Below are positions 4,741 through 64,000 of a stretch of 64,000 nucleotides of DNA, one piece after another. Numbering within the stretch: position 1 is the first letter of the stretch; each line of letters begins with the position of its first letter. A model generated the notes under the pieces. It ran no database searches, was not told the DNA's origin, and was given only the letters and a program-made list of their open reading frames with translations. The DNA comes from Raillietiella orientalis. Its lineage: Eukaryota. The stretch is from NCBI GenBank assembly GCA_036172245.1, contig JAYWIR010000028.1, positions 1,984,001-2,048,000 on the forward strand, given 5' to 3'. A program made the position numbers and the translations under genes.

Positions 4741-5814
4741 GGATTGCCCGTGAAGAAGAGGGGACGTCCCATCTACCTTCCTTCCGGATGTGAGGTCAGG
4801 ATTCGTCGTGTGCCTGCCTAACGTGTCCCTTCGGTCGAGGTCACCCTGGAGGCAGGGGACGTCCTTCTCGAGGTTGACTTCCACATCCCCGCCCTGGTGG
4901 AGGGGCTTCCTTCCACTCTTCGAAAAATTCTTCCAGAGACTTCGGGCATCCTTCGGTTCTCCATCCCATCGACTCAGGAATGGTCTTTCCGGATGGAACT
5001 TAGGACCTGCGCTCTTCCGCTTTCCTCCAGAAGCGGAGAAGGGGGTCTAAGGGCGAGTATCAGCGTTACGTCTAGACGGAAAGGGTCCGTAATCGGGGTG
5101 TCAGAGAACTCCTCGGGGAACGAAGAAGCGAGGGAAAGGCTCATGTGGGAGCTTGCAAGGAGGGGTCGTGGCTAGTGACCATCTCCCGCCCGCAACTCTA
5201 TCCTACTTGGTGCCGCGGGCTTCTGGGAGGCGCTACCGACCACTGGACATGGTCACCGCGGAGTCCTGTCCTCGCCCTGGCCGCGCAGATTCCTTGGGGG
5301 CGCTCGTTCGTCAGCTCCGGGCCGCGAATTGGGACTGAAGGGGATGAGGAGGGACATCTCTCCATCCGTCAACGGGCCTTCTGCTCCCTCTTGATTACCG
5401 TCTCAGCATCCAGGATCCTGGGAGTTTCCTTTCGGACGAGAACTGACAGAAGTCTACCGAGACAGGGAACCGTGGGCGAGATGGGACACGGAGGGAAGGG
5501 GAAGGAGATACTCTGGGGACAGCCACTCCCGGCTAGTTGCGTGAGGATCCTCCGAGAGACTGCGGGAGAGGAAGGGCGGTTTAGAGGAGGGAGAACAGAT
5601 GAAGGAGACGCACCCGGCGTTCCCTACTGAGGCCCCCTCGACTCGGGACGCTTCTTCGCTGCTTGGCATCCGCAGCCTCCCCCACTCCCGGCTGGAGCGC
5701 AGTGAGAGGATACCGGACGGGCTCTCCTGCACTCACGAGAAGCGCCTCCGTGAGGTTCGCAGCCGCTCGCTCTCCGCCTTGGGCGGACAGTACAAAACCC
5801 CCTTTCTGGTAACG

Positions 5815-5910
5815 AAAAGAAGAAAAAGAGGAAGAACGGAGGAGGAGGGGAGGAAAAGAGAAAGGGGAGAAGAGGAAGAGGGGGAAGAAGAAAGGGGAGA
5901 GAGAAGGAGA
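5815..5910 (+). repeat. Polypurine tract
   Basis: ~95 nt composed almost entirely of G and A. Confidence 0.8.
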
Positions 5911-7909
5911 GCTCAGCTGGACGCGCCTCCTTTGGGAAGAGAGCGGACTCTCCGAGCAGCGGCCTCCAGTTTCGCGGAACCCGCCGCGGTGAGAGAGCGC
6001 ACGCTGGATCCGCTGCGAGATCCAAATCCGGACGATCTCCCTCCGCCTATCTGATTGGGCAGCCGAGCTCTTTCCCTTGCGTGGACCCCTCGGGAACGAA
6101 CCCGTCGAAGAACAGCCGTAAACGCAGGTCGTAAAAGCAGGTACGAGTAGTCCCCATCTGTCGCTTATGGGGTCCAGTAATGGCGCAACGCGTTCCCTAA
6201 ATTCCTGGTGGGAGAATCGCGCGGTTCCTTTCCCGGATCGAAGCGCCGGCAGCGAAGAGAGAAAAATCCCCGCCTCTCCTCGGAAATCGAAGGGCACGTG
6301 TCCGAGGAACGGTGTGATCTCAGTGACGTCCCAGCGGAGATCTTAGGTCGGTTCTCTCCGTCCCTTCCGCGAGCCATTCCGCTCCGGCCCCCCTCCCTCG
6401 CTGCGGAGGGAAAGGAGGAAAGGAAGAAAATCGCTCCTGGTGAAACGAATCCCTCTATGGAACTGGGACACTCCCCTACCTCTTCTCCTAGATCTTCCAA
6501 AGAGTGAAATGGAGGAGGAAGAGGGGATAGTAAGGGGAAAGACAACCATATGGGCTATCTCTGGAGGGTCGCTGCATCCCGTGCCTGCGGGGGTCAGCAC
6601 TCCGGGTCACGATTTGAGCTCCTGTTTCTTCCTGCGTCTCTCAACTGATTCACGATCTGATAGGAACAGAATGCTGCGCACCTCGTGCAGATGCACGGTC
6701 ATATCAGTCACTGCATCCAGGTCATCTGTGAGCGGGCGGAGGGTGGACAACGGTGGCGAAGCGTTCTGAAGCAGGTGGGGTTGTCATATTCTGACCTTCC
6801 CTTCCGAGAAGGGACTTCCGCGTTCCTGGAGAGAGGTCGAAGGAGCAGCGATCTCTGCCAGCACGACGGGAACGGTCATCGATCGATCGATCATCCACCC
6901 GCCCATTTCTCCTCGTCCGGTCGCTCTTCCTCGTCCGCTTACCACAACACCTTCGATTCCTTCCTTCTCAGCCGCCTGACCGTGAATTGACCAGCAGATT
7001 GATAGAGCGCGCCGCACTCGCTCGCTCGTGGAGCGCAAAGGATGGAGGCCCTCTTTCGTCTCCGAGGTTCCATTTCCAGACGTCCGTCTGTCTCCTCTTG
7101 GTCGCATCTCCATTCTTTGCACTGGGATTTTTCTACTGCGGACCTCACATCCGCTGCGCGTTTCCATGGACTCGCTGCAATGGTCGTCTTGGCCTCTTCC
7201 TTGCCCTTCTTTTTTCTTTTTTTTAGCGATGCCTTCTATCTGGAGAGGCTCATCACACTCTTCGCGCACGCTGCCAGGACACTGCCGGGAGTGGAGATGG
7301 CGCTGTCCGGTCGGCATCTCACTTCTCGGTTCTCATCGCCTTGGAGTTGGCAGTGGTCTCTCCCGCCGTTGCTGGCCCCACAATCCAAACTAAAGACACA
7401 CCCACTTCTTTACCTTGACCCCTTTTGGGGCATTTTGTCTTTTGGGGCTGTCTGACTGCTCTGACTGATGGGTGGGCGCAGCGATGAGGTCTGGCTCCTC
7501 TTCCCCATACTGGCTCGCTCTGGTTGCCTAGTCGCTCTTACTGCTCTTCTGGGGCCAGTTCGTCCCACTGCTTCCAGGAAAAAGTTCGTGAGTCGTTGCC
7601 GTTCAGCCGAGGACTTCGGTTTTCGCCATTTGGAAGACAGAAAGGAAACCCGGAAAGGATCTGCTCCTTGTTTGCTCCTCTGAAGAGAACCCTGAAGGGA
7701 CGCTCCTCTCTCCCGAGGGAGCAGCGCCTTCTGACACTCTGGAGAGGCATCAACCAGCTCCATGGTACGCGATGGGGGTCCCCCCCAAAGGGTAAACGAT
7801 GACCCCATTTGCTCAACTGGAGGGGAATCCCAAAGGACTCCTTGATTTCTGGGGGATCCCGGAGGATTGGCTCTCAATCCCGACCAGTCATCAGGGTATT
7901 CGACTTCCA

Positions 7910-25394: not shown

Positions 25395-28300
25395 GAAGGA
25401 AAGAAAGAAGGAAAGAAAAGCGAAATCTATAATGGTGAGGGTGCCTCTTGCTCTTCAACCACCGCTCGCTGAGCAGTTTAAGCCCCGCAGAATGTAGAAG
25501 AGCGGAACGAAGTGCTAGAAATCATAGATGGGACGTTTTCCCCACCTGAGTCGTAACGGCAAAGGGGCAGGGAGGAGGCTCCATCGAGAAAGGGAGTTTA
25601 GGAGGAGGAAAACTTTCTAGAAGATTTCTCTCGCTCTGAGGAAAACTAAGCGAACGATGGGGAGGAAGAATTTCCTTCTACGGGACGAGCGGCAGGGTGG
25701 GCGCGAGACCGGGGCGTGGCGTTGCCGTCCCTCAAGGCCCCCTTCCACTTCGTCCGAACGCGATGCCGCCTTTGTCCTGAGGCGGTCGGCTGTGTGGCGG
25801 TACCCCGGTGACCTCCTGAACTTCTTCTGCAGGCGCTCGCTTGAGAAACGGCCGCGCGAAGACACGCACGAAACAAGTGCAAGGTCGTCCAAGGTCGCGC
25901 CGTGTCTCTTTCGCCGCCGCGCTCCCGTCTGCCATCCTTCCTCTTCCCCCGTATCCCGCTCCAGGGATCGGCGGGGAGGGGATCCAGTCAGCGAACCCGA
26001 CGGGCTCGAAGACACGACCCCGGAGTGTTCAGGTCGGGGCTGCCTCTTGAGACGTCGGTGGAACGGGCGCCGGTCTGCCTCTTCCCTCTCCGGAGGGCGT
26101 CCTGAGCTCTTCCTCCGGCTTCGTTGCGGTCCGTAAGGAGGAGGAGGAAGAGCGAGCGAGAGGAGTTGTGAGTCGGCCGGCCTCGAGCCCTGTCGCCACC
26201 CCTTTGCCGAACCGCGGGTTTCCACCGCCCGGAGGCACACCTCGTGCTGCGATGCGCGCAGTCTGTCTCCAGGGAAAGTCGGAGGGTGCTGGTGCATCGA
26301 CTCGACGTTTTATGTGGCTGGCACATCCCGGAAGTGGAGAGGGACTCTCCCTTCTCTCGATGTGACCTAGAGCAAGGGAAACGTCTCCAGAGGGGTGACT
26401 GACGAACGTCCCCACCAGGACTGCCAGGCTCTCGTGGATTCAAACCGCTGAGCGCGTCCCCTAGCCCTCTGGCACTCCCCATTTCCAGCGCTTCCCGCTT
26501 CCGGGTCCGGCGATGGGAGGTCCTCGAGGTCCCGGAGAAAAGGCGACCGCCTTTCTCGACTTGCCTCTTGACTTCCGCCCCGGTGCTGCTTCCTCTCAGA
26601 GCGGAGAAGGACAGCAAGAGCTTCCCGACGCGGAGGTCTCCTCGGGAGGAAGAAGAGGAGGAGGAGGCGGGGACGGGATGGAGCACCAGGAGGACTCGCG
26701 CGCCAGTGGCCACGGGGGTGCAACGGAACCAGAGGGGAGTCCGATCGTCTCCGCTCTTCAGGCGCTGATCTCCCGCTGCTTGACCTCCTTTCTGCACGCA
26801 TCGCACTCTCTCCAAGAACCAGTCGGCGATGGATGAGGCAAACAGGAAGGAGAGGGGGGAGTCGAAGCAAGGAAGGAGAGGAGTAGGCACTAAGAAAGAA
26901 CCTTCCGACACTCCCTCCCTACCCACCATTCTGGTTCCAGGATTCGTCGCTTCCTTGAAGACCAGAGAAGTTGCCAGTTTCCTTGTGGTACCGTGAGAGA
27001 GTAGGGGTGCCTTTTCCTCTTGCTCCTCCTCCTCATTATCATCATCATTCCTCCCTTTTTCCTTCCTTCCTACCTCCTTGTTTCTCCCCCTTTCCTTCCT
27101 TCCTTTCTTCCTCCCCCTCCCCCTCCTCTTCTTTTTTCTCCTCCTCTTCCTCATTCCTCCCTCCTCCTTCTCCTAGTACTATTTACTATCCTCATCGTCA
27201 TCGTCATCACGACACTGTGTTTGCTTCTCTGCGTCTCCCGCAAGGTCCCATGGCTTGACGGGCGCTTGGCGGCTCCTGGCCGCCAAGGTCGTTCAAGGAA
27301 CTTCCCCGCACCCCTCGTCGCCGCCGCGGAGCGAGCGCGTTCCCGGAGAGCGCCAATCGATCGCGTGCCCATTTTTCTCTCCTTTCCTTTCCCAGGAAAA
27401 TTCTTGCCTCGTCCCGGGATGGAAATCCGGTCCGGAGCCATTGCCTCGGGGAGGAGGGGGGTAAAGAGGACAAGGGGGGGGGGACTGTTGTAAAGAACGA
27501 CGGCACCGGACAACGTGGCAGAAGGGGGAGACCTGAAAGCGACTGTACTTCGCTTGAGTGGGACGGAGGGAGGGAGAAGGAAGTTTGCGGGAAGACCGGA
27601 CGGGGGGGAGGGGGAATTTGTGGGATCGGGATGACGGCGATACCTCCTCCTCCTCCGATCGAGGGCTCCGGGACGCCGGTCGCAAGAAGAGAAAGGTGGC
27701 GCGATGACTTCATGGAATCGGAGGAGGGCGAGCAAGCGATGCCGTGGGCATATCGAATCAACGAGAAAAGTGGGCGCCAGCAACTCTCGAGCCTTCCGGG
27801 CAGCATGCGCCTCCCGCGAAGCCACCTCCAACAGGTGAGACACGCATTCGCAGGACCACTTTTGGCCGGAAGGGTATTCCCAGGCTGTAGATCCAACCTC
27901 TTCTCCCCTCTCCCTTCCTTTTCTCGAAAGAAGGAGGGCGCGAAATAGAAGAGTGGCGGAGACTGACCATCGCATCTGGAGCCTCGTTGGCCTCTGAAGT
28001 CTCTGTCAAAGGACGAAGGGGATTTCGGTGGGACTCCCTACGGGTCAAGAAACAGAATGACTCTTCCCAGGCGCTGTGGCCTTTGTGACCTTCTGGAGCG
28101 TTTGTACCTATCGTACGTCCTCGACACACTCCTCACTTCAGTTTTGAGATACGCGTGACAAGCGGCAAAAAGGAAAGCGGGGGCCTCGGTCTCCCAGTTG
28201 CCCCAGCAACCCTCCTCCCCGTGGGATCACCCTGTGAGAGAGCGAAAAGCACGGTTGATCTCTGAGGCATTTCAGCGTTTGAGAGTTGCAAAACCAAGAG

Positions 28301-34300: not shown

Positions 34301-36881
34301 CGCTTCTGCTGCCACTGCTATCAAGCTCGTTTTCGGAGGCGAAAGCAACGAGAAACGCGAAGAATCTCAAACCGAGATTCTCGGCTGAGGTGTCCTTCTG
34401 CGAAAGAATTCCCGGTTCGGTTCATCCGGCAGAGAGGGCTCTCCAGTCGCTCTGTTCCTCCTCCTGCGCCGCCAGGGCGGTCGTCACCACTTCGTGGACG
34501 CCGATCGCACTTTCACTCACCACGAGCAGCCGCGGCAGCCAGCCAGAGAGGCTTCCGGTGACGGCGGTTCGAACCCACCGGCAGGATGGCGCAGCACGTG
34601 GAAGAAGCGGCATCGACCTTCCGGCGCTGCTGCTGACCTCGGTTCGCCCGTGGAGAAGAGACCGCTCGTGCCGCCGCTGCCGGCAGCTTCGCCCCCGATC
34701 GCCCGCTGCACCGAGGTACACGAAAGCGTGCTGGTGGCCGAGGACACCAGCAGCCGTCTTCCACTGCGTCCGGCAGGCGATCTCCGGTCTTCGCGAGCGC
34801 GCGAGGAGGAAAGGCGAGGAGGGGTGGAGGCCGAGGGCGGCGGGAGGGGCAAGAAGTGGGCTCTCTCTCTCGTCCGATCGCGCGATGGGCTGCGCTGGCG
34901 CCGGCGCCACCTCCGCTGCCCGCCTCCAGTCCGCTCGCCTTGCCCTCTTCGCGCGCGCGCGTGCATAAATCTCCCCCTCACGTGTTTTCTCTGTTGCACG
35001 CTGCACCCAGGATGGAGCACGGGTAAGAAGCCGCTCCGCGGGCAAGCGCATGTTCAGCACAGGCTGTTTAGGTGTCTACGACTCCCGCACTCGGGTGCTC
35101 ATGGCGTACGTAGCGATGCTGCTCAACATCAACGTGCGCAAGTTGATGTGGTTCGAGGAAAAGATCGCCCTCCTGATCCGGCAGCTGCTGCACCTACCCA
35201 ACAAGTGAGGGTCCTTGACAGATTTGGCTTGGCGCTCTGGCGATAGTTGGGGGGGGAGGGAGGCGGTCGCTTTGTGGGGAGAGCGCGCGCGCATTTCCGA
35301 AGAGACGTCCCATGGCGGCGAAAGGGGGAGAAAAGAAAAAAAAACTCCCTGTTCTCTTCCCTTTTCGTCAAGGGACGAATGCGGAGAGAAGAAGCAGCGC
35401 GAAAAATTCAAGAAGATCAAGCGCTTCGCCTTCATCGGCGCAGCCACGGTGAGCGCGGGCGCCATCGTGGGACTCACCGGCGGCATGGCCGCCCCGCTGA
35501 TAGCCAGCAGTCTGGTGGGCGTCCTGGGCATGTCGGGAGCCGCGGCCGTGAGCTCCTCGGCGGGCATCCTCATGATGGGGTCCGTGTTCGGGGCGGCGGG
35601 AGCAGGGCTCACAGGTCAGCGGCGGGAGGGAAGGTCGAGCAGGAGGCGCTGCAAGGTGAGCGGGAACCGCAGGCTACAAGATGGCCCGCCGGATCGGCAA
35701 GATGGAGGAGTTCCGCTTCGAGAGGCTGAGCAAGGGCATCCACTTCCACATAGCGATCGCGGTCACGGGATGGCTCGCGGATGAGGACGAGGACGGGTTC
35801 CTCAAGCCGTGGAAGAGCCTCTTTCTGTCCGACGAGCAGTACTCCCTGAGATACGAGTCCCGGTACCTCCTGGAGCTTGGAAAAGGGATTAGCTACCTGA
35901 AGGAGCTCATGTTCTCCCTGGCGGCGCAGGAGATCCTCCGAGTGACCTTCCTTTCCGGTAAGATCACCCCTCCTTCCCTGCGAGCGGAGAAAAGCCGAGA
36001 TTCTCTCCTTTTCCTCTTCTTCCTCCTTCTTCTCCAGGATTCATCGCCGCGATAACATGGCCCACGACCCTGCTGTCCTTGGCCTCCTACATCGACAACC
36101 CCTGGAGCGTGTGCTGCAAGCGCTCTGTCGAGGTCGGCCTCGAACTGGCGGACGTCCTTCTCCGCAGGTCACACGGAAGGAGACCCGTGTCGCTCATAGG
36201 ATACTCTCTCGGCGCTAGGGTCATATTCTACTGCCTGAAGGTCTGTGCTGCTCTGATCGCAGCGCCGGACGATGACCCGAACCGGCCTCCTTCAGGAAAT
36301 GTCGCGGAGGAAGGATTGCGAAGGGATCGTTCAAGACGTGGTGCTCCTCGGAGCTCCGGTGACTGGGAGCACGAAGGAATGGCGTTCCCTCGGGAGGGTG
36401 GTCAGCGGGCGTCTCATCAACGGGTACAGTAAGTAAGTGAGGGAACCTCCCTTGCCTCGAGGCGCAGTGACGCTGCTGCCGCCCGTCCACAGAAACGACT
36501 GGATCCTCAAATTCTTGTACCGGACCTCTTCCGCAGCCCTCAAGATCGCGGGGCTTCAGGAGATCTCGTGGGACGACCGGAGGATGATCAACATCGATCT
36601 CTCGAGCATTGTAGGCGGTGTGTGAGTCACGAAACGCGTCACTTCCGAAAGGACAGAGGTCTCTCCCCTCAGGCCACGTCGAGTACAGCGACAAGATGGA
36701 GAGCCTGCTGAAGTGGCTCGGCCTCAACTACTACAGCACTCTGCAGTCGCCGCTTACTCTGGGGAGCGTAGAGTACGCGTTTCCTAGGCGGAGGCGCCTC
36801 TCCAAATCCGAACCCGCGTTGTTCCGCGGTCGCGCGAGTGAACGGAAGCCGTCGAAGCGTCGCGCCTCCAGCTTCAGCTAG
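25043..36881 (+). CDS. TMCO4: Transmembrane and coiled-coil domain protein 4 (DUF726, alpha/beta-hydrolase-like), 9 coding exons, ~547 aa
   Basis: Exons 25043-25207, 29737-29881, 35072-35204, 35373-35614, 35673-35957, 36038-36240, 36296-36432, 36493-36617 and 36673-36881 join through GT-AG introns with consistent phases (1644 nt total). The translation is collinear with TMCO4: LSEPGLFAYGALCAMSL, GVYDSRTRVL, KIKRFAFIGAATVSAGAIVGLTGGMAAP, FGAAGAGLTGYKM, IDNPWSVC, RPVSLIGYSLGARVI (GxSxG), DVVLLGAP, GGHVEY. The start could instead be the in-frame ATG at 25028. Confidence 0.93.
27010..27210 (+). repeat. CT-rich low-complexity tract with (TCA)n in TMCO4 intron 1
   Basis: Imperfect (CCT/CTT)n and (ATC)n runs. 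Confidence 0.8.
32760..32900 (+). repeat. tRNA-derived SINE-like repeat, family A, copy 2 (in TMCO4 intron 2)
   Basis: B-box GGGTTCGAACCCC and collinear similarity to 7910-8070. A short related piece lies at ~34562-34592. Confidence 0.6.
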
Positions 36882-47900: not shown

Positions 47901-48730
47901 GAGGTTAGGAGGATCGGCATCGCGGTAATGAGCACGATTCCTGAGATCCTGCGTCGGGCAGAGATGGGGAAGAGGGAGGAAGGGGGGGGGGGTCGCGCAA
48001 CTGGGAGAAAATGCACGTGCCAGTGTCAAGGCAGCAACCTGAAACACGCTCCCCAGCCCCATGCAGTGGTGAAAGTGCAGAGTGGTCCACCGTGGAAGAA
48101 TTCGCCGTGGAGAAATGCAGACGACCGTCCTACGAAGTGATGGCAGTGTGCCAGACGCAGTTCGTTACCATGGCAAGGAGGGCAAACACCGCCTGCGCCC
48201 TACTCGACGGCGGCGAAAGCTGGGGCTGCCACGGCACGAACCCACGACCGGAAAAGTGAAAAAGGAGTCATATTGAAACCCGAAGACGTAGACGTAGGCT
48301 CCATCCTCATTACGCAGAGAAAAGTACACCCCATTGAAATGGAACATCCCACACTTCGCTGACCCTATTGAAAACGGGGCAGTGAAGTGTGGGATTTTCA
48401 ACCCCACACTTCACTGCAACGAAGGGCAGTGTCAAAGCAACCGTGCCCTTTGCAGAACTGCCGTTTGCACCGATTGCGATCAACTGTTCGAGAAGGTCGT
48501 CGAGAAACGGAATGGCTTGAAATGGCAGGAAAGCCCGAGGGCATCAACGAGGAAGTCGCGACAAACCGGAACCCTTGCGGCTTGAGCTTCAACCCACCGA
48601 GAAATTGCACCTGGGGCCATTTTTTCCCAGTACAGTACGCTTTGATACATTTCAATGTAAGGAATACAGATTAAGAGATGAAAGGGCGGGCTTTCCACCA
48701 CCTCAACAGATCTTTTAAACTTCCTTCGCG
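44920..48730 (-). mobile_element. Decayed Tx1/L1-like non-LTR retrotransposon (ORF1, endonuclease, RT)
   Basis: Frameshifted motifs occur in the expected order: ORF1-like CRDFLVDALG / GHGCFDTALRCSEVW / YVYVFGF (~48600-48270), a broken CCHC knuckle (~48050-48000), endonuclease-like segments (~47200-46830), RT segment RWSYLAAILIESFAQWIELLSY...LVRR (~46580-46420) and a YADD-like relic (~46350). An AT-rich tail lies near 44920-44945. The 3' boundary is uncertain. Confidence 0.6.
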
Positions 48731-48736
48731 TAGATT

Positions 48737-48839
48737 TATCCGAACGCCTCACGATTCTGCGCGTCATTCTTGCTCAGGGGTCATGCTAACCTTCTCCGCA
48801 TCGTTCCAATTTTAGTATACGCACAGCTGAAGCGTGTAC
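48737..48839 (-). ncRNA. Variant or pseudogenic U6 snRNA fused to the U2 fragment
   Basis: The minus strand reads GTACACGCTTCAGCTGTGCGTATACTAAAATTGGAACGATGCGGAGAAGGTTAGCATGACCCCTGAGCAAGAATGACGCGCAGAATCGTGAGGCGTTCGGATA, collinear with canonical U6 over ~100 nt. The AGC triad is kept, ACAGAGA is changed to GCGGAGA and the 3' oligo-T is missing. Confidence 0.9.
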
Positions 48840-48871
48840 ACTTTGATCTTAGCCAAAAGGCGAGAAGCGAT
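48837..48871 (-). ncRNA. U2 snRNA 5' fragment (nt ~1-35), truncated inside the branch-point recognition sequence
   Basis: The minus strand reads ATCGCTTCTCGCCTTTTGGCTAAGATCAAAGTGTA. This matches the metazoan U2 5' end ATCGCTTCTCGGCCTTTTGGCTAAGATCAA(A)GTGTAGTA apart from one missing G. The rest of U2 is absent. Confidence 0.9.
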
Positions 48872-49339: not shown

Positions 49340-50350
49340 GGAGGCAGTTATGGGCTTCGAAGGTTTAGTACTAAGCCAGGGTTGATTTTTAAAACATTGC
49401 AGAAATGGATGTAGTTAATGATGGATTTTGGGAAATGATGCTTTAATCGGTAAAGACAGAGTGTGCGAGGTGAGGATATGTTGAAGAATTCGACAAAAAT
49501 GCACTCGAAATGCTTTTTGAGGACACTTACGAGTGGCACAAAATAAGGTGTGCTCTCTGTATTGGCAAATGTTTGTGGTGTTTTGGCTGCTCTAAGGTAG
49601 CAAAACGATTGGATACTTAATTGGTACCGTGGATGAGAGATTGTATTGGGAGAAGCTGTCTCATTCGGTAGGTTTGAAATGAATGCCGTAGGGAAGAATC
49701 TGTGGTGGGTTTAGGGGACGAGAAGACCCTTCACTAGAACTAGGTGTCTTTCGAAGATTCCCGGCCGTTTAGGGGGAAAGAATAGAGGTGAGAACTGCTG
49801 GAATGGGGATGACGGTCGATGGTAATAGGGAAATGATGATGAATAGAGGGACCAGTTTTTGTCATGCTAGAAGGATGATGGTTGATAGCCATGCAGAGCT
49901 GTTCATAACGGGTAAAAATCAATAGTGGAATGGTAGTATTCCTAGTTTTATAATCATAATATGGAATGGATGGAAAGGAAAGGGAATCAACTAAAGAAGA
50001 TGCAATTGAATGGGAGGAGTGATGATGATGCTGTTTGAATAAGCAAATATTTTATTCCGGAATGGGAAGAGAAGAGGGAGGAAGGAGGGATAATGATAGA
50101 ACATGCGGAAAATAGGTTGATCTCTTGTCTGAGTCAGGTAATCAATCAGTTATTTGTAGATAATGTAATTAGTGCTCTAAGGGAGATCAGTGTTAAGGAG
50201 GGTAGTGTTGATGAAACTGCGTGATATGGAGATCAAATAGACGACTCATGAAAGGGATATGGACCCAACGGCTTTATTTGGCTTATCTTCCATTTGCGAG
50301 TTAGTAATGGTATTGAACACATCCTTATTGAAGAAACATTCAAGGAACAT
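49340..50350 (-). mobile_element. Possible Penelope-like element relic (RT end and GIY-YIG tail)
   Basis: Fragmentary peptides NHHPSSMTK, QYREH, LQHILTSH and INYIHFCNVLKINPGLVL occur in the order expected for a PLE C-terminus. Heavily decayed. Confidence 0.35.
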
Positions 50351-50363
50351 TACTGTTATGTGG

Positions 50364-50405
50364 CTGTCGGTGTACATCTGTCGGTGTATATCTGGGGGTG
50401 TATAC
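50364..50405 (+). repeat. Short tandem repeat, 3 x 14 nt
   Basis: ctgtcggtgtacat / ctgtcggtgtatat / ctgggggtgtatac. Confidence 0.75.
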
Positions 50406-51729
50406 TCAAAATTGAAATCGAGCTGATGCTTTTATTTTCAAAATAAATGTTTCACGTGAAGCTTGTCAACGGAACTTTTATGTAGTGGCAAAGAAAGGTC
50501 ATTTTCGGATATTTAATACATCATGATGTGCATCCAAGCTGCAGATCGGGTAGCGGGATCTACAAGGCAATTGGGAAGGTTGCTATTGGCGGAAATTCTA
50601 CGGTATTCAATCTTCGCGTTTTTACTCACAAAAAATATATATATTTTTATTTTCTGCAAAGTTATTGAATGTTACTGTGTGAACGCAATTTTTCGATAAG
50701 CGATTACGAATTAACAGAATATTCGCATCTGCCACCCGATGTGTAATAGTCATTATAATGACATTCTGAAAGTTTTTAGAGAAACCTGCTTTGAATAATA
50801 TAATACCCTAAACGTTTAGATTATTAGTTGATAAGTAATAGTCTATAATATAATTGGGATACTCGAATAAAGAGATAAAATGGGAATCTTTATAAAAAAA
50901 TAGAAAATTTTAGTTTATGGGCTTAAATGTACGTATTTATGGAAGGGGATGCGTCAAATGGATTTTATACTTGGAAATATTTTTGTACCAATATTACTGC
51001 AGTCTTGGGGTATTGCATAGAAATCCAGGAATTTTTTAATCAGAACAGTTTGCTGGCAACACAGGAGATGAATTCTGGAGAGATTTATAAATGAATTAAG
51101 CTGCCGATATGACGAATTTAGGATTTAATTATGCGTTGGCTGTTGCTAACCATTTTTACGTACGTTTTTTAATGTTAGTCTATGTAATGAGATACATACG
51201 AATTTCGAAAAGTACAGAAGGCTGGTATGTAATTGCAAAGGGGAATTCGAATTGGCAATCGCTGGAAATTTTGCCAATTACAGTGCCGGCAGCTGCGGCT
51301 AACCGTAAGAGTTCAATGAATTTGGATATCTCTTGATTGAATGGAAATTGTAGGTTGAATACGTATGTGTTATGGAGGTCTCAGTTATTATTTATAAAGT
51401 AGAACTGGGTGCTCTAGTGTGAATAATGGATAGCAATGAGTTGAGGAAGGGGACCTCTATGATTTAGAGGTGCTGAGAATTATTGGGGGAATCGGCTCCG
51501 TAATTGAGAATCTGCGAGGAACTTCGCTTTTTCGTGTCTGTGTGTTCTCACTTTCATTATTCAGGAGTGATTCGTTTCCGCAATAGAGAGCAGTCAAGAG
51601 CTCTGATCAAGATGCAGCATGAAAGGGGATAGCGATGAGCCGTGGTATGCTAAATTCGGAGATATGAATGTAATTTTGTATTGAAATGGCATTCAACTGC
51701 AAATCCGTCTGAGGAGGACAGGTTGGATG

Positions 51730-53370
51730 ATTCTTGCGCTCGCCTCCTCCCGAAGATGTAGCCGATCGCTCATACCGTGCTCTGCATTTCATTCTCGCAT
51801 CATCTCCAACGCTCAATAAAGAAGTAAAACTTACTCGAGGAGTGATGAACCATATTTTCGGGATTTTGATCCTTGGGGATTTCATCATTAGGGATTACGA
51901 CATGTTTCTTCCGACCATATGATCGGCGCCTCCCGTTTTGCTACTGCGGTTATTCTTTCGCGTGGAGGCCCTGAGCTCCCTACGGGAGAACGGCGGCAGC
52001 AGCCTTCCTGCCAGATGGAGGATTTGCCTGCACGCTTGCAGGGCGGGCGACGAGCACTTCAGTGGATGCTCGTCCAGTCTGTTAGCGAACACTCAGAATC
52101 CATGGGTAGAAGTGCAGAAAATGCCCCCGGAGGAATTGGTAGTCCCTCGCTCTGTTTCGACAGACTCCTCTAAATTGGCAGTACTTGGTCCTTCTCGTTC
52201 TGAACCGGGCATCCACTGGCACGGATGGCGGACTCATGTGTTGGGGAGGGGCTGGAAATGCGTCCCTGAATTGAGCGTGGATCATTTTGCTTCGTCAGAG
52301 ACGGAGGAGATTAATCAGTTTTGCTGTAAGCTTCCGGATGGACGACGGACCGGAAAGGCTTGATGAGACGTTTCTTCCCCGAGGATGGCTTCACGATGGC
52401 AGCAGCGCTGGACCTACTGACCTACATCCCCAGCATGGTGGCGATGCGCCTCGGAATGGCGAAGAACTACAGGAATTTGGAAGTCACGTCAACGGTCGCC
52501 TCTCTGCTAAGGTGGAAACTCGCAGACCTCCCATCTTCCCTAAGAGGCGAAATCTCGGACACTAAGCGCAGACGGCGACACGAGGCAATCGCCGATCCCT
52601 CGATTCCCCCCTCCCCCTTTCCCCGCGACGTTATGGCACTTTACTTGTTTATTTTTTTTGTTTAGGGTGGCACATGGTCCACAGTCCTCTCGCGTCTCGA
52701 GAGATCTATGGAGACTCCCTAGGAACTCCTAAGGCAAAAAAGGAGGTAGCAGAGGGGGAAGACGAGAAAGGATGTGCACGACCTGCAGCAAACTCTGTAC
52801 TGTTGTGCTGTATCTGCGGCAGCGCAGTAGCAGCAGGCTGCAGAAGGATCTATGCCAGCAGCAACGAAAGTCCTCTTTCGTGGGAAGAGCTGCCAGGAAG
52901 TGGCCGTATCCGGACCCGGAAGCATTCCTCATCGTGCAAGCCCTACGTGCAGGGAAATCTGAAGGCGCAGTGACTCTTCTTCCCTTTCCTGTCGCACGCT
53001 TCGTTCACTTAGCTCTATTATTTATTGTCCCCTTCTCCTAAATCCCTAATCAGCAGAACGGTTCTAGGGTATAGCACCCCTAGCTGAAGTGCGTCCAGAA
53101 CGAAACCCGTCCCCCTGTTTCGTCTGCCTGCGTATCCCGTGAAAACAAACTCTCTGAAGCGATCGGGTGACACACCCCCACCCCTGCGTAAGGTATTAAT
53201 TCGTCCTCAGCAGCGACGGGCCACTCTGCATGCCGTGCGCGCAATACTCTTTTCAACCAAGAGTATCCATTTCGAGGAAATCCTCGAACGAACCGCCAGG
53301 GCAGCAACTCAGCCTTCCAGAACCTTCTACGAAGGAAAACTTACGCAGTCGAAGCCGTTTGCTCCCTGAA
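51730..53370 (+). mobile_element. Possible DIRS-type tyrosine-recombinase retrotransposon relic
   Basis: STDSS..W.GW (RNase H TDAS-like), SVDHFASSETEEINQFC (DIRS methyltransferase-region VDLFAS..N..F-like) and LHAVRA..FEEILE..SRTFY (YR HxxR...Y) appear in DIRS1 order. Confidence 0.5.
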
Positions 53371-56300
53371 AAGGAGATGTGCCGTCTTGCTGCTACTTCC
53401 ACACCTCAGTTTACACATTTCTTTATGCCAGAACAAACTCACACAACAAGAGATGCCTTCTGTCTAAGACTGCCTAGATAGCAGCTTCCCGCACCTTCGT
53501 GGAGAACTGCAAATCGATTTCCACTTCTTGTCGCGGCAGTAATAGTGGGCGTTTGCACATACCCTAAAAAGCAAAGAGAAAAAATCATGGACTGATGAAA
53601 AACAGGATAAGTTCTGGAATCCTCAGCATTCTTTCCCAGCTTTCTGATGACCCACATAGGGACCAAGTATTCCCAACAATAGAGCCACCTAACGATGATG
53701 GACCCATCACTTGCAGGTAAAGCGTTGTAAATATCGTGGACTCTCAAGAGATACCATTTTTATGGGAAGAGTGTCCACTGCTCTTGAGTGGGAATCTGCG
53801 TTCAGAATCACGGATTCCTTGGTGGTAAATAAAGTCTGCATTGCCCTGGGGTTTCCTTCGTCCGAGGTTTCACTATGATTGAATTCTGGGTAACTCCCTT
53901 ACGACAGACATCGCCATCACGAATTGCTGCGTTTAAAATCGAAAAAAAGGAGGGAAAAGATGTAAGGGAAGCGGCGGGAGTAATCTTGGAAGCAGCAGAC
54001 GCCTTGTTTTATAAGCCATCGCATGGGCTCGAGATGGGGAATTTGATGTGAGCGCGCTCACCAGCTGCTTGGCAAAAGAAATTCCGCCATTCCAGATTAT
54101 GACCCATCGGCTGCACTTTTTTTGCTGTCACCGCAGTCTAACTCCGAAACAGTCTCACCTATCGAAAAACGTGCCAACCCGGGAACACCTACGGAATTGT
54201 GGGCACGGTGATGTTTCCCTCATACGAGCTTGCGGGGAACATCACGTCATTTTTCTTTGGGCGTTATTGGCGGTCTCCGTAGTGTGCTTGCTGTTTCTTT
54301 GCACTGAGGCTGGCTGCACTCTCATCGATTAAAAGACGAAGGATTTCAAAAAATAAATAAATCTCGAAGAGATCAAAAAGCACACGATGCAGGGAAGAAT
54401 GCTCTGAACGCGTAGTTCCCACACCTGTCAGGAAATATTTCCAGACGACTACATAAGTACTGATTACTTCAAAAAAACAAAAAATGACGACGGAAAGGGG
54501 CACAGACATTACTGTGGTTAGCAAAAAGTGTGCATCGAACGTTATTGTGGATTCCTTGCCAGCACATCTCACGTGGACTGCAGCTAATTCGAGTCACGCA
54601 ATAGTGTTGGTGCTGCAATCTTAAGGCAACACGAATTACTCTGAAGTTATAAAATAAGCAATTTGCTTAATGTCTTTTGAGTTAGTAGAAAAACATTCAA
54701 TTTAGCCATATGTAAGCACCTTGTATTTAGATTCTTGGGTTTGGCAAGTTCAGACTCGTAAAGCTCTTTATGCCAAATAAGGTATGGGCAGTTGTCTCGA
54801 AGAGAGGCTTCATTGAGTGAATGACCAAAGCTAGATTCCTTAAAGATATTGTTATATGGGCTCTTCTGATGTGAGATGGATGTAAGTTAATCAGAAGGAA
54901 ATTTATTCCCGGAGAGCACATTCCTTGAGGGATAAAAAAAAATCCGCCCTTGGCTAATTAATTCAGTTTTCATTTAACGAACCGGAATATTCAAACATGC
55001 AATCAGAATACAGAACAGAATCGAAGAGTAGAATAGTGGATAGAGAAGCTCTCATGTTCTGAGGATCGATAATAATTCAAACAATGTGTTTTTCCGTTTT
55101 AGAACATGAAGAACGGATAAGATGGAAGAATAGAAAGAAAGAAAAAAAGAGGCAAAATACTGTCATCCGTCAGCCGAAATTTCGCGCGCTATTCTCACGC
55201 TCGGGGCATAAGACAAGCACATAAAAAATTGCATTCTTTACTATTTTCTCATCTTCAGCACATTAATCCATTTAATTGAACAATAAAAAAAACTGCGTCG
55301 CTAAGCAGAGTTGGTGGCTCCTTTAAAAAAAATCGGTCATCTCGTCTTGCCTTCCCGATTTTGGTATCCAGGAACTTGGAAAATAATTTCCAGCAAATCC
55401 ATGTAAAAACAAAAAAATTCAGGAGTACGAGAACGAGACGGAAAGCAATGTAAATGTTTTCGAAGTGTACGAAAAAAAGAAAAAGAGTTGAAATCATCGT
55501 GAGATTACCTCCAAAGTGAAAGCGCAGTCTCTTGAAGATGTGTATGAGCCACCCTGCCTCGTGGTGGAAAGTTTAACAGAGTGAAAGAGTAAGATTATGA
55601 GAACTTCGGTTGCTATCAAAATGAATTTATCAGCTTCTTCACGAGGAACAGACCTAGAAGAATAATGAAAAAGGACGGACACACTGAACAGACTGTTCTC
55701 TTTTTCACCCCCCTCCCCCCGATTCCACGACTGGTACCTTCCCGCCCTCATGGCGCCCTTTTCACCGAGAATTGTGACAACACACAGTTTCTAAATATTG
55801 GCGTTTCTTGATGTTTTGAACGCTCCATAAGCGCGTTTCATTAAATGTACTTTTCCCCTATGGCGAGCAACTCCCAGGATTTATGTAATTCGTGGAAACA
55901 GATGAATCTGTCAGAACAAATCTGATATTTATGGAATTGCCGTACTGATTATTATCGTGGGAGGATGATCAAAATTTTTCTCGCTGTGACCCAAATGGAA
56001 TCCACAACAAAAGTCCTACGACGGAACCTGCACTAAAATCAATCCCACGGCAGGTTTGGGGGAGTATTTCTAAAACCGAAGGCAAAAAACTAGGCTACAA
56101 TTCTTTAGAGATGCTTTTAAGGCAAAACCGCAATTTTTCCAAAATCTCTTACAATCTGAATCCCAAAATCTTTGGAAAAAAAATTAAATGGTTTGGATAC
56201 CACAAAATGTTCACAGCTCCATCCATAAAAGCTAATTCACTAGTCCCGCACTCTAAGCAAGGCTAATTTCCTTACTGAAGTTTAACAACATCCTTGTCAT

Positions 56301-56580
56301 GGGTTCACATTAAAAAAAGTCCACCTCACTGAAAAATGTCATGATTCACCTGTTGGAATTTTGCAGCGATTTTGCATGTCTGGCATCTTTGAAACAAATA
56401 TTTAATCAGGAAACTCTATGTTAAGTGAATGAACACCTCATCAACATGTCAGTGTCCAAATATAACTCAAGCTACTGTCTTTTTCAATCAACTACTTGAA
56501 GACCGCAACTTTCATCATAACAAAGTCATGCCAGGCATGCTTAAACACTGGTATTCACAGGAGTTTAGATAGAAATAGCA

Positions 56581-58957
56581 TCAAATGCGACGGGAGCGCT
56601 TAGAGGAAGGCTGATAATCCCAGATGCTCTTCTCAGACTGATGATCTGGAGAATAATGGGTAGGTTTTTCAGGACCGTCACTAAACCAATCAGACATCTT
56701 GGTTTTACTATCATCGTAAGGTTGCAGATCACTTCCACCAATAAAGTGCAATGGGTGGGAACGTAAAGCTGGCATAACCTTCCAAAACCATAAGCTTAAG
56801 GGACATAAAACTTGATATTCACCTTATGGAACTTTTTGAAATTCCTACTAGAAATGCCATCTGAGAGGGAGAGGACAGGAATTTTCTTATTGAGTAGGTC
56901 CACCATGTCAACCAGCATATAATTCTCCAAGTTCTTTGCTTCATGAATCACTTCTTCCTGCTTTCCATAAGATTTGTATTCTCCATTTCCTGAAGAATAC
57001 TAACCAAACCTCTAGGTCTTTCAGCAATAGGACTTACTTTTTCCTGTGTGGAAAAAAGACTCTGCTCCTGTGGACATTTATCAGCAGTCAAACTGATATC
57101 CTGGTCCCTCTAGGGCACATACTGTCGATTTTTTTCTATCATTTATGAGTGAAGCTTACCTTCTTTTCAACAGTATGCTTGTCAACATGTTCTGGAGTCT
57201 GATGGGCAATTCTTGTTTTCGTTTCATTTTGAAACACCTGATGATTATACTGGCATGTATCTGAATCATTAAATGTTGGTGCAGTACAATCAGCCTGCTG
57301 TGCTTTTTTTCGTTTTTTCCTTAAAGATATTGTGTCCTCAAAGTCATAATTATTGTTTGCTTCTGAAATGAATTCTGTTAACTGAGAAGTCTTGTCAAGA
57401 GAATGTTTTATTGGTCGACTTGTTAAGAGAGATGAGTGGGAACTAAAGTTTTTATCATTATCAAAATGCAGTGTACTTGCTGATTCAAAATCAAGAATGT
57501 CAGGAGACTCAACCTCTTTAGAATTCATTTTCTCAACAGGTGTTTTAATGGAAGATGTATCTTTTACAAAGGATGTATCAAGTTTTTCTAACACATCAGT
57601 GACTTTGAAACCTTCATCAACATGGGGAGCATTATGCACAAGTTTCTCAGGGAGAACTGATTTACTATCTTTCTCTTGCCAATTTGAAGGAGAGAAGATA
57701 TCCATACTGAAATTGGTTGCAAGAGTATCTGTATCACCTGATGAAAATTTTGCACAATCTGCTGATGTTGAAGCAAACATCAAAGGACTAGATGGACTTG
57801 AAACTTTCTGAGTAATAGTGCCTATAATGGTACACTGACTTGGATTAGCCGTGAACGATGGATTGCAGTAGCATTTTCTGTTGTTATAAAGAATTGCCAA
57901 TCCAATTTCAGATTCAGTAATAAGTCTGTGACCCCTACTCTCCAGCAAATGTATTATCCAAGGAGCAGGATCAGAAGCATGTTCACCTACAATCACAACA
58001 TTTTCGTCCACACTACTAGGATGCTGTTCAAGAATCCCAGACCATCCATCTACAATGCCACCTGCAGCTTCTACAGCTGCTCTCAGTTTTTTCTCAAGTT
58101 TTTGGGAACAAAACATAAAGTGCACCTTACTAAAAAGGTGGCTCCTTGATTGAATGGGAGAATAGATAAAATGCTTCTTGGACAACATTTCTTCAGCAAC
58201 AACAGGCTGATAATTGAGTGGATCAGGAGCTACTGACTGTGTTTGAAGAGCTTCCCATAACTTTTCCAGGTATTCTATGGTTACCAACAACATTCCTGCT
58301 GCCAGACCACAAACAAGCTAAATGCTTTGTATTTCAGAACATTGGGAAGTTGGCAAATCACCTTCACTGTGAGAATAAGGCGATTCATCACTACCAAATG
58401 ACAGGAAGGAGACCAATCTTCATGGAGAGATCCTTGCAGAGCAGATACCAGAGACTGGAGTTGTTTTTTTTCCCTGCAGTTCAAAGAAGATTGAGTGACT
58501 TGTAGTGGTCTGAAACTCAACCTAAAAACATATAATTTCCTCACATTTTGTATACATACTTCCAAATACTATTTAGTCTACCAAAACGCAGCATATCATC
58601 ATCATGTAATATTACTTGACCACTGATGTTCTCATTTTTTTTAATACCATCATTCACAAAGGTTCCATATTTTGAATGTTCATCCCATAGCATTACGGTG
58701 CACGAAGACAACTGTAATTGAAGCAAATGACACAAATTCATGTACGTTCTTACTTGTGGAACCTCTGAAAATGACAGTTTCATGTGGGCATGAACACGAC
58801 TCACAGAAATGTCTCCCAAAATTTTGATATCTGCGGACTTCCGTCCTATGGTGACTTCTTTATGATAAGGAAGGAGAAAGCTGTCTCCTTAAACCACAAA
58901 TTATAGAAGCTTTCACTGACCCAACTTACCACTGAGAATATTTCTCAATGACCACAT
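56581..58957 (-). CDS. NBN: Nibrin / NBS1 (MRN complex subunit; FHA, BRCT, Mre11-binding and C-terminal motifs), 8 coding exons, ~692 aa
   Basis: Exons 58957-58930, 58887-58754, 58711-58560, 58521-58362, 58317-57160, 57109-57038, 56999-56823 and 56778-56581 (2079 nt, GT-AG, in phase). Motifs: FHA (MWSL..IGRK..DISVSRVHA..DEHSKYGTFVN..RFG), BRCT (WSPSCHLVVM..TVKLVCGL; ITESEIGLAIL..YCNP), Mre11-binding RNFKKFHK and C-terminal FIGGSDL. The boundaries of exons 6-7 are the least certain. Confidence 0.92.
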
Positions 58958-61099
58958 AAGTTCCTGATAAGCATGCAAACTTTTAACAGTTCATGTCTGA
59001 AGCTTCATTATACTTTAAATGTCGAAAAGGAACACACAAAAACTGCAACCTCAAACAGTGTGATGGTAGATATAGTAAAGTTGCATGGGTACATTGCAAC
59101 AAAAGATACTTCTTTATATAAATAACATCTTGCAAGTGTAATACACAGTTTCAACAGCAGGCAAATTTTTCGGCATATTATCAATATGGCACTAAACTTT
59201 GCAAGCAAGATGAATAACGAAGCAGCAACGCGTACAATGAATAGGTTTCACTGTGACGGCCCTCGGCGGATTCCACTTCGCTCTTACTCGTATCTAAAAA
59301 GGAAATTTGCGATGAAATCTTGTTCGCAGCATTATAAGTCATGTTCAAGTTTATGAAAAGTTCAACTTCTTAATCTTTACTGTCACTGTTAATGTCCCCG
59401 TTAATGCCCCTTCAACTCGCAGCTATCGAAACAAGTTAACGCCTCCATAGCCAGAGCTTGAAATTTGATTGTGTACATTACAAGTCTGTGATGTATTTAC
59501 TCAAATTTATGTGGAGGCAGCCCATGCGCTCAATTTTTCCGCTGAAACTTCCGAAATAAAAACAAAGAGCTAATTGGGCACGCATGGCAAGCAATTAACG
59601 TTACATTAATTTAAATGAAAATGGAGTCGATCAGAGATGCAGCAGCACGGTGGTGGACAATTCCTCAATTTCATCCTGGAAAATCCATCACCGATTTAAA
59701 CAGTTCGGGAACATCCACAAGTACCATCATCATTTGCATCGGAAGAAAGGAGACACGGCCTGGTTCCGTCAATTTAGATAATAGCAACTTCATTAATAGA
59801 GAGAATTTACTAAGGGAATAAGAGCAACTTCATTGCTAAATGTTAGCAGTAGATTTCAATTCAGCCAAATTAGCCAAAATATGCCAACAAAAAGTAGAAC
59901 GATGGAAGGAGATTCGTCAAACGATAATTGCTAAGCAATTGGTTGGAAAACATGAAAATTCAAATGTGTTCTCTTTTGCTGGCATACATTGCCGTTGAGA
60001 CTGAGGGAAATTTAGTGGACTGACGGCAATGCTTATCGAAGTATGAAGCTCTTTGTAGAGAACATTAATTGTAGCCTTTTTCCTTTTTGTGCTTCACGAC
60101 GACTCTAGGAACACTGGAACAATTTAGTAACATTCGATCTTGAAAAGGGTGTAGGAACAATTTCATAAGAAAAAAGTATGATGAATGCTTGTTCATAAAG
60201 CACAAAAACATATGCTAAAAGTTTACTAACGAATATCCACTTTCCACTGGCATAACCTTCCAAAAGGATGGTTCAAGGGTGATGACGAGGACAAAGAGTA
60301 CATTCAGGATCATTTTTATCAAAACTAAATTCTATACAATTGATGCAATTCTTACAATCGTTTTCAAATTAGAATTGCACAGAAATTAGTTTTTCACTTT
60401 AGCATGGAATACAATTATGACAACTGATCAACTGATGCAATCTTATAAACTGAAGATCATTTTTTGCAACATAGAGGACTTGAGTTCATGTGATAACTAG
60501 AAAAATAATCATATTCTTCTCAAATAGCTGGAAACATCCCATCCAGCATTTTAATATATGACTGAAATATTGGAAAATATTGGAAATGTTTTTCGAATAT
60601 ATGCATATCAAATTGTCTGAATTCATAGCAGGCAAAATCAGTAGAATCAAACCTTTAATATACATACTTGAAGAAAGACTTTCCTTTCAAGTTTTGTGTC
60701 GAAGCAAAATCAGATTCATACATACAATGCAAAATCACTCCTGTATCTACTTACGTTAGGTACAGAAGTGATGACAAGCTTTGTCCAATTCTTAATCATC
60801 AATTCTGGGAAACATATGCCCTTTACCCAATCAAGCAAGCAAAATAGTTTACAGGATACTGATATCACCCTCCCACAAGCAAGAGGAATTCATATTTATC
60901 ATTTGAAGGATGCAAAGGACGGACTGTTGGTGCGGCACGAGCTCTGCAAAGATTGCAAGCAAACGTCAAAGTTCCCTATCCCCACCTTGTTATTAAATGT
61001 GTTCAGCACTCTTATAGACGTTTGTCAGGATTTCAGAGCGTGCCTTTTTTTTGTTTTTTTTGCAACAATTTTGGATGACTTGACAGCGTTGTTACCCGC

Positions 61100-61300
61100 G
61101 CCCGAAACAGTTTCCTAAAATAATTCCCAGGCTTCCATTTGCTCGACGTACGTCTCACTAAGGGAACCCATTTGCTGAACAGTGGACAACGGAAGGACTT
61201 TTCCCAGATGTGTCAGGCTTTCGAAAGCGATGAATCTGAGCCTCATTGATTGGCATTCTCGACTGTTCATAACGAATGGCATTCCGATGTGCGCCTTTTG
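61100..61300 (-). mobile_element. Possible mariner transposase relic
   Basis: LTHLGKV followed, across frameshifts, by SKWVP..SE resembles the mariner LGK..K...WVPHELS linker. No terminal inverted repeats or DD34D domain recognised. Confidence 0.2.
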
Positions 61301-64000
61301 GTAAGCGTCATGTTACTGTGTATCACCAGAACACATCACGGTGAGCTACATATACTTTTATTAAGAAAATAAAACAAAAGGTAATGAAGGTATTTTTGAG
61401 AGAAAGCAAAACACCCGATGTAGAATTACTAACGCGAGATCAGTTTATCGTTATGTCTAAAATGCCTTTATAAAATAAGAAGAAAAATAGCTGCTTCCAA
61501 GGGGGACACTCTTCAAATCAATTTCAGGGTGCTAGAATTCATATTGGATGGCTTGCCAACTTGAGTTGTAATCAGAATTTAAATATCTTCCCATTTATTT
61601 TAGATTGTCAATTCCTTATTTTCTTACTTATTTCAATTTTGATATCTATTTTTGGTTAGTTTGTTCGTGATAACCATTCAAGATCGCTAAGTTTCTCAGT
61701 ATTGAGAACGGAGAATTAGAAACAAATTTCTTCTAGACTCTAGTTACGAATTTATTTTTGTTTAGAAGGATTAACTTTTTTTTTATTCATTAATATTTTA
61801 TTCACCCTCTTATGCATCTCCTAGCCTCAGTACTTATCGTGAGATCGGTGATTCATCCAAGGAGGCAACCAAACTTTTGAAAGAACACAGAGCAAGACCA
61901 GCGTACCGTCGACCTACTCTCTGTAACGTCCCAACCAATATAAGAATATGCTCGAAATAATACAATTAGTGTTTAAGATTACAGTAAAATAATCTTTTTG
62001 ATTTTTCAAAGACCAACAGCATTGAAGAATTGTAGAATAGTTTCAAAACTTCAGTGCCGGTTCTGCTGCATGTCTTGAGGAATAATTTCTAAGCACACTA
62101 TTAGACTTAAGTCGAGTAAAGTAATTTGAATAATGCCTATATTTCTACTTTTCATTTTGTTCAATTATTAGAATAGAACTAGGAGACATTTTTTGGCAAC
62201 GAACATCTGCATTTAGAAATGTCCTGCCGACCACAATTTTGAACCCAAAGAATGCTAGCTTCTTAAAATAAAAACTGTAATAGCGGATTCCTCTACTGAC
62301 CTTTTCCATAACATAGGTCATAATTGCCTCTTTATGTATATGAATGCCTCCTATTTCACTAGTCCCACTGTTAGGTGTTATTTTACTCCATGTGTTAGTC
62401 TTGTGGAGGGGGTTGATGGGAAAATGAATGAGATAGAAAAATAAGTTCATTTTGCCAAACAATATCGATATTCAGAAAACATAGGAGAAAAAACAGAGGG
62501 GAGGGAAAGAGATTGGAACTAGAAATAAAACCATGAGAATCAGTTAATCAGTTATTCCTCAATTGGATCAAATTGTCCAAAAATAAAGTACTCGGCTGAA
62601 AAAAGTACTTTTAAAAAAGCACTCGAGAGCCGCACCAAAAAACTCTGAAGGCTGCCATTTTTCTATGGCTGCACTAGAATATAACAATTACAAAATAAGG
62701 TTTCATGTTAAAAGTGAGAACTATAGTAAATGCACTGGAAGAAAAAAAAATCCTCTTCCCTTTCCTCCTCCAAAGGAGCGGATAATCTATTAAATCAAAT
62801 AGAAAAAGTTGCATCGAAACTTACAATAAACTCACAAATTCATCATAAATAAAAGTATTTAAACTGCTTTTATAGCTGCAAAATAAGGTAAATGGACAAT
62901 ATACCATGCGTAAACTACATTTACAAGCACATTGACCGGTTAGAAGCAATAAGGTATTTCTCACATCAGAACGCATCATCGGAACTTAGGATGTATTAAT
63001 TATGTATGGATTGTAAGTTTCCATATCGATTCCAATACTTTGAAATCTTTCACCTGTTACAGCTGAATTTTTATGAACGATAACGGCTCACAGGCTTTCT
63101 CGTGTAAAAGTGGTGATACTCTGAGAGCTTTTCAAGTTGAAAGCAAGGAATTTTTGCCCTTAATTCTATTTTTACTATAGGTAATGCTATAATATCGATT
63201 AAATAATGTGGTCATTGTGACATTAAAACAAATTGCATTTCTGTTTGCACGTGAAGTGGATCCGTTTGGAAAATTTGGCGAGTCGTTGTTATTTAGTCAA
63301 ACATTGAAGTATTCATTGGAAACAAATCCCAGACTACGAAGAGCCATGATGAGATCTTAACCATTGGGAAACAGTTGCCTGAAATAACCGTAGTTTATCG
63401 GGTTATTTTCAGCAGTAGAATTCTCTTTTGAAGGCAAATAGACCAAGCTATGTACGTTGTTTTCATGCCTTAATTGTTGAAGTCGCAAATTTTTCAAGGA
63501 AGAAATAAATCATTTGAAAGTTCAACATAGTAATAACTTATTTTGTAAACTTGGTAGTTGTTGGAACCAGAAGTATGTTATGGATTCTGAATGAGGCTGT
63601 AGGATAGTAATTTAAATATTGAAATATGTTAATCAGGTATAAATGTGCCTGTTTAGGGTCGAAAAGTATGTATTCTTTGATTCTCCGTGGTCTTTTACAA
63701 GTTTATTTACAATGAAGTAAAAATGTAATAAGATTTAAGGTTGGCAGGATGAAAATAATGGAATTATTAATAGCATTTTATCTTGAAATATCAGGGTTTG
63801 TCATTAAAAACTTGGGATCCTAAGCAGCACGTAAACAAGTGCATAGTTATCAAGAACTAAGACTGGACTCTACTAGGAACTTAATATTGCACATGGCAAG
63901 ATAATACTTAGATAAAAAATAATATAAAGGTTGTGTTGCATCACTATTCAGTTATCACCATGACCTGAAGAAAGCTATCTTTCGTCAGATATATTATAAA

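Follow-up and report, generated by a model that had tools for sequence, protein, structure and literature searches.

The first 35 nucleotides of the U2 snRNA are fused head-to-tail to a full-length U6 snRNA on the minus strand at 48871-48733 of the window, the whole 64-kb stretch of Raillietiella orientalis DNA that was analysed. The fusion is real and far beyond chance, and its anatomy, its boundaries at RNA termini, the microhomology at the junction and the damage to functional elements of U6 can be directly observed. Mutations have struck the catalytic elements of the U6 part, so that the locus most probably represents a dead, reverse-transcribed chimera rather than a functioning spliceosome core in one chain. 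That it belongs to the decayed, RNA-derived chimeric pseudogenes as a class is regarded as quite probable, and the more specific explanation, a dead chimeric snRNA pseudogene that arose when a reverse transcriptase switched templates from U6 to U2 and that subsequently decayed, is given a little better than even chances.

Composition of the fusion and its boundaries

The initial annotation, made from the letters alone, had described U2 nt ~1-35 running directly into U6 on the minus strand, with a GTA at 48839-48837 shared by both, and this description holds: the Rfam alignments agree with it and the GTA is present as the overlap of the U2 and U6 alignments (Table 1). U6, with one match, is the sole Rfam family that reaches its gathering score in the entire 64-kb window. 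The initial annotation had also proposed a comparison with the Rfam models of both RNAs, in which U6 scored above its gathering cut-off of 44 bits (RF00026) and U2 remained below (26.4 versus 46 bits for the whole model RF00004), the latter because the remaining ~155 model positions are absent. A full-length U2 as represented by RF00004 would also include the complete branch-site region, the Sm site and the stem-loops of the 3' part, but only positions 1-35 were found. This piece comprises the 5' end, stem-loop I, the partners of helices I and II and the first GUA of the branch-site region. It is identical to the consensus at 25/25 upper-case, that is strongly conserved, positions as counted by hand from the Rfam alignment, and departs from the model by one 1-nt deletion and one 1-nt insertion.

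Three of the boundaries are located at RNA ends, namely U2 position 1, U6 position 1 and the U6 3' end, approximately at the U-run, and the fourth, at U2 nt 33-35, falls into the single-stranded branch-site region, where a GUA is common to U2 and the U6 5' end. As every boundary thus lies either at an RNA end or in a single-stranded region of U2, an RNA-derived origin is indicated; an enzyme that reaches the end of its template is expected to leave junctions at RNA ends, which would be a coincidence for a breakpoint at the DNA level. The 35 nt immediately upstream of the U6 copy, where an snRNA-type promoter would be sought, are U2 sequence.

Table 1. Location of the fusion, its elements and other features in the window
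Feature	Position	Strand	Basis or remark
U2 snRNA nt 1-35	48837..48871	-	Aligned to U2 model positions 1-35 (lenient Rfam search, 801 nt)
Full-length diverged U6 copy	48733..48839	-	RF00026, 71.6 bits, E 3.9e-16, model 1-105 of 105
GTA junction microhomology, end of U2 piece and start of U6	48837..48839	-	Overlap of both alignments
ACAGAGA-box position, reads GCGGAGA (2/7 changed)	48793..48799	-	U6 alignment
AGC triad, intact	48785..48787	-	U6 alignment and indexing
U6 ISL region, weakened; G-to-A beside bulged U at 48766	48762..48783	-	Alignment
Degenerate remnant of the U6 T-run, ATAAATC	48733..48739	-	4/5 terminal U positions mismatched
ATCTGTT, same letters as U2 nt 38-44 given in PMC4640811	48705..48711	-	21 nt after U6 end
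Multi-exon DUF726 (TMCO4-like) gene	35209-36429	+	Domain search, DUF726 confirmed in Atlas
Nibrin-like gene, FHA 58544-58888 and BRCT 57142-58317	57.1-58.9 kb	-	Domain search; inside the AT-rich part

The window is eukaryotic in character, with a GC content of 52% and a CpG observed/expected ratio of 0.91. In its last 14 kb (50000-64000) the GC content is down to 33-41%, compared with about 50-60% before. The nibrin-like open reading frame in this part shows a best identity of 33% among 25 proteins with E up to 0.001. The DUF726 gene is split over at least three open reading frames in overlapping frames, which implies short introns, and for its middle exon a word-index protein search with a limit of E 0.001 gave no relative. 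At 48342-48417, about 320 nt past the fusion on its downstream side, three alternating copies of CCCACACTTC(A/G)CTG are arranged as two overlapping near-perfect hairpins with arms of 18 nt and 24 nt that are complementary at 94% and 88%, respectively. These hairpins gave weak miRNA-precursor-like Rfam matches only (E 0.17-9), and no other copy of the set is present in the window. Purine-rich low-complexity tandem arrays of the GAAGG/GGAGG type and their complement occur in the GC-rich part, at 4394-5911 and 27075-27158.

Decay of the U6 part and its predicted fold

The U6 part departs from the upper-case consensus at 13/63 positions as counted by hand from the Rfam alignment, with 9/58 mismatches in the near-invariant body and 4/5 in the terminal U-run. 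The positions of the AGC triad and of the bulged U of the ISL, which the initial annotation had reported as retained, were found by indexing to be correct; the same annotation had passed over the GCGGAGA box, a C-A apposition in the ISL and the ATAAATC end. The C-A apposition presumably derives from a C-G pair by the G-to-A change on the 3' strand of the ISL, according to our own assignment of the pair, so that a change at a paired position breaks its pair. With ATAAATC as the U6 3' end, no Pol III terminator is left. In addition, the helix Ia strand of U6 reads GGUU in place of GAUU, and the loop of the 5' hairpin UUCA in place of UUCG. The 5' stem-loop has kept 5/5 pairs although its letters depart from the consensus, and these differences probably represent the source species' own U6 and not decay.

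Among the substitutions at conserved positions of the U6 body are five A-to-G, three G-to-A and one C-to-A; all eight transitions are located at purines on the RNA strand and none at pyrimidines (p about 0.014 given the composition). Changes are also unequally distributed between the two parts, with 0/25 conserved positions affected in U2 versus 13/63 in U6 (one-sided Fisher p 0.009, or 0.032 when the T-run is left aside). Had both parts arisen in one event and decayed equally, this asymmetry would not be predicted; it calls for chance, an already diverged U6 template or editing. Possible causes are accordingly chance, a diverged variant of U6 as the template, editing of the RNA or cDNA, or the diverged master of a multi-copy family, and purine-biased changes in U6 beside an unmutated U2 piece could hint at either editing or a diverged source copy.

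The initial annotation had stated that the pairings between U2 and U6 remain possible. On paper this is the case, as 16/18 pairs are standard or wobble pairs, composed of 9/11 in helix II, 3/3 in helix Ib, which is indeed intact, and 4/4 in helix Ia, which can be drawn, but with two G-U wobbles and not the one that had been noted. These pairings are, however, not predicted to form. The minimum free energy structure of the 139-nt fusion RNA lacks helices Ia, Ib and II altogether, and in the free ensemble the pair probabilities are about 0 for helix I and about 0.09 for helix II. At -33.6 kcal/mol versus a shuffle mean of -35.6 kcal/mol (z-score +0.52), the RNA folds no better than its own composition provides for, with 139/200 shuffles folding as well or better. 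When helices Ia, Ib and II are forced, the structure reaches -22.7 kcal/mol, 10.9 kcal/mol worse than the minimum, on an energy scale that is uncalibrated against a working U2+U6 pair. The 30-nt ISL segment alone is predicted at -0.7 kcal/mol with an unpaired centroid, a value at least equalled by 193/200 shuffles; of the stable ISL with bulged U that characterizes functional genes of RF00026, the U is present and a stable fold is not predicted. Since A-to-G changes automatically convert A-U into G-U pairs, the two seemingly preserved pairings that the initial annotation had stressed are no sign of selection, and nothing in the fusion suggests selection for pairing.

Proposed template switching and rival origins

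Within the class of RNA-derived chimeras, template switching from U6 to U2 is the likeliest route, with about even chances, its main competitor, at a distinctly low probability, being an insertion into a copy of U2. In a template switch, the reverse transcriptase of a retroelement would have copied U6 RNA from its 3' end to the very 5' end, where the end of the nascent cDNA, complementary to the GUA of U6, would have annealed to the GUA at U2 nt 33-35 in the single-stranded branch-site region. Copying would have gone on to U2 nt 1, and the resulting U2(1-35)::U6 cDNA would have been integrated and would later have decayed. The template switch, the enzyme responsible for it and the closeness of U2 and U6 at that time, for example in the spliceosome, are what we infer. 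Reverse transcriptase switching between base-paired U6 and U2 had been offered as the second reading in the initial annotation; the switching belongs to the best-supported class of explanations, while the base-paired state is more than one locus can demonstrate.

The fusion shares with chimeric retro-pseudogenes the direct join, the same orientation of both parts and boundaries at RNA termini. Such chimeras are delineated in PMC2104539 by a full-length cellular RNA as the 5' part and a 5'-truncated RNA, mostly a LINE, as the 3' part. This classical layout is absent, with U2 being 3'-truncated at nt 35 and U6 being full length. No target-site duplication was found between the upstream and downstream flanks (best local alignment 22, a score reached by 18/300 shuffles), no poly(A) tail follows directly after U6, the nearest A6 run being located about 130 nt downstream, and a reverse-transcriptase or endonuclease domain (Pfam) was encountered in none of the 196/196 open reading frames of at least 110 aa in the window. 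Decay could have erased flanking direct repeats and an A-rich tail. A loose likeness by eye of the type TGGCC..CAA..TTTC, shared by the flank 23 nt upstream of U2 and the stretch that follows a downstream A6 run, was rejected, as it does not abut the element and is absent from the alignment.

As regards the joining step itself, the 5' end of U6 is capped and should therefore offer no 5'-OH, and the 3-nt overlap suits annealing better, for which reasons RtcB-type RNA ligation was set aside. The ends that this ligation brings together are a 2',3'-cyclic phosphate and a 5'-OH (PMC6789731).

Of the alternatives to a template switch, the one that survives best, still rather unlikely in itself, supposes target-primed reverse transcription as the means by which a U6 cDNA, which may have carried a very short tail of LINE sequence, entered a U2 gene or pseudogene. 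Microhomology at the 5' join is usual for target-primed insertion, and the GTA at the junction suits this mechanism as well. The site would be the hot spot at U2 nt 38/39 used by Utopia and Keno, and the rest of U2 would either have been lost later or never have been there, the target then being a truncated U2 copy. Utopia and Keno are described as two unrelated non-LTR lineages with the same insertion site in U2, after which the downstream U2 restarts at nt 39 (TCTGTTCTT), with nt 1-38 expected upstream and variable 5' boundaries (PMC4640811). The U2 piece stops at nt 35, 3-4 nt from this site, and U6 is followed by an A-rich stretch that ends in AAAAG and then by ATCTGTT, the look-alike of U2 nt 38-44. 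ATCTGTT, which was noticed post hoc, is possibly a remnant of the U2 target site and, located as it is 21 nt past U6, fits insertion into U2 and thereby speaks against a template switch. Post hoc arithmetic gives a chance of about 0.002 for this heptamer on the same strand within 30 nt; in the window as a whole it occurs 4 times versus 7.5 expected (both strands, 128,000 strand positions).

On the other hand, no 3' part of U2 is present downstream beyond ATCTGTT in lenient Rfam searches of 801 nt, of 6 kb and of the 387 nt downstream with E up to 10, and as U2 sequence of the same age as the U6 copy ought to be recognizable to this day, its absence counts against insertion. The body of a retrotransposon is equally missing, as seen from the lack of any retroelement gene among the open reading frames, and Rfam shows no U2 array in the window. 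Moreover, had the U2 piece been there before U6 arrived, it should show no less decay than the U6 copy, and yet it is unchanged at all of its conserved positions. That U2 breaks off so near the Utopia/Keno target points to U2 nt 33-39 as a hot spot of retroelement activity in general.

Less probable again would be membership of the locus in a multi-copy, so far undescribed family of SINE-like retroposons that have a short U2 head and a U6 body, in analogy to SINEU. SINEU families as described in PMC4494074 carry short 5' U2 pieces, and one of them is a composite of two snRNAs; an already diverged master copy would, in addition, account for the older appearance of the U6 body relative to the U2 head. 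There is, however, no second copy of the fusion within the 64 kb and neither a poly(A) nor a LINE-like tail. Repeats of the flanks of the fusion were not found elsewhere in the window, nor were other small-RNA pieces near the fusion in a lenient Rfam search of 6 kb. Beyond the window, a generic U2-U6 junction pattern retrieved 10 loci from metagenome contigs, all attributable to chance, with unrelated flanks and 0/10 Rfam matches at E up to 0.01, and 2 loci from viral contigs, both likewise due to chance with no ACAGAGA/TTAGC nearby, both collections containing few eukaryotes. An exact 26-mer of the variant U6 had 0 matches in prokaryotic genome contigs. As these collections are poor in eukaryotes, the blank scans are weak evidence.

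A rearrangement at the DNA level, in which neighbouring U2 and U6 genes or pseudogenes were joined by microhomology-mediated deletion or end joining, is slightly more doubtful still. It would account for the lack of both a target-site duplication and poly(A), and a 3-nt overlap such as GTA is typical of microhomology-mediated joining also, but its breakpoint must have hit U6 position 1 exactly by chance, and Rfam reveals no other snRNA gene in the window. An assembly or library artefact, such as a chimeric read, is very improbable, in that a chimeric read of two intact genes would not combine a junction placed exactly at two RNA ends with the numerous substitutions of the U6 part.

Hardly credible is, finally, the main reading of the initial annotation, a functional single-chain U2-U6 RNA that forms the pairings of the catalytic core in cis. 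The mutated ACAGAGA box and ISL, the latter with a broken C-G pair and next to no folding energy, the missing terminator, the energetic cost of a forced core, the vanishing probability of helix I and a global fold no more stable than that of shuffled sequences all contradict it, against the retention of the AGC triad and the bulged U, the drawable helices Ia, Ib and II and a U2 piece that is unmutated and exactly the part that pairs with U6. A like U2 head is found on unrelated retroposons (PMC4494074), and the piece matches the LINE target site described in PMC4640811, so that its extent needs no functional explanation. It is just as implausible that transcription of the locus yields, or until recently yielded, a single-chain U2(1-35)-U6 RNA that serves a biological role, be it as a decoy or regulator in competition for factors that bind U2/U6 or U4/U6, or as a degenerate cis-folded core; in such a case, selection on the U2 head would have kept it unmutated.

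Known chimeric snRNAs and the meaning of the fusion

Chimeras of U6 with LINEs have been described, including internal template switching into snRNAs, which end up 3'-truncated (PMC4476161). In the U6/LINE-1 and other snRNA/LINE chimeras as described (PMC4476161, PMC11838501, PMC6789731), two cellular RNAs are joined directly in the same orientation, with a full-length U6 and as a non-functional copy, which is also the situation in the fusion. In those chimeras, however, U6 is the 5' partner with its 3' end on a 5'-truncated LINE, and they possess poly(A) and target-site duplications, whereas in the fusion U6 takes the 3' place, with its 5' end on an internal site of U2, and neither poly(A) nor a duplication is present. 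Double template jumps have given rise to tripartite chimeras such as B2-U6-L1 of mouse and WEIRD/MGL of Magnaporthe, in which a full-length U6 received another RNA on its 5' side by a second jump at the U6 5' end (PMC2104539). In contrast to these tripartite chimeras, the piece added here is a spliceosomal snRNA, and a LINE 3' part or direct repeats are not recognizable.

Short 5' heads of U2 are, on the other hand, a feature of the crocodilian SINEU elements, to which, according to PMC4494074, U1 and U2 pieces have been added repeatedly by template switching, including a 5'-terminal U2 piece of 32 bp in SINEU-3 and a U1-U2 composite in SINEU-2. Unlike the fusion, a single copy in the 64-kb window, SINEU elements are described there as multi-copy, with poly(A) and without U6. 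What is new is the combination of U2 and U6 as partners, and the kind of chimera itself is already known. In full-text searches of the literature, no description of a U2-U6 fusion occurring naturally in a genome was encountered.

Engineered or in vitro U2-U6 constructs and domain V of group II introns offer a further comparison. As in those, the helices can be drawn in one chain, but the ISL and the ACAGAGA box of the fusion are damaged and the fold is not predicted.

If a template switch from U6 to U2 is indeed the origin of the locus, the fusion would be another product of retroelement reverse transcriptases that stitch abundant small RNAs together, the novel pair being the two snRNAs that form the active site of the spliceosome, joined at the single-stranded branch-site region of U2. 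A single decayed copy says little about biology. Should RNAs that pair in vivo, however, prove to be joined beyond chance across eukaryotic genomes, such retrocopies would be a natural record of RNA proximity.
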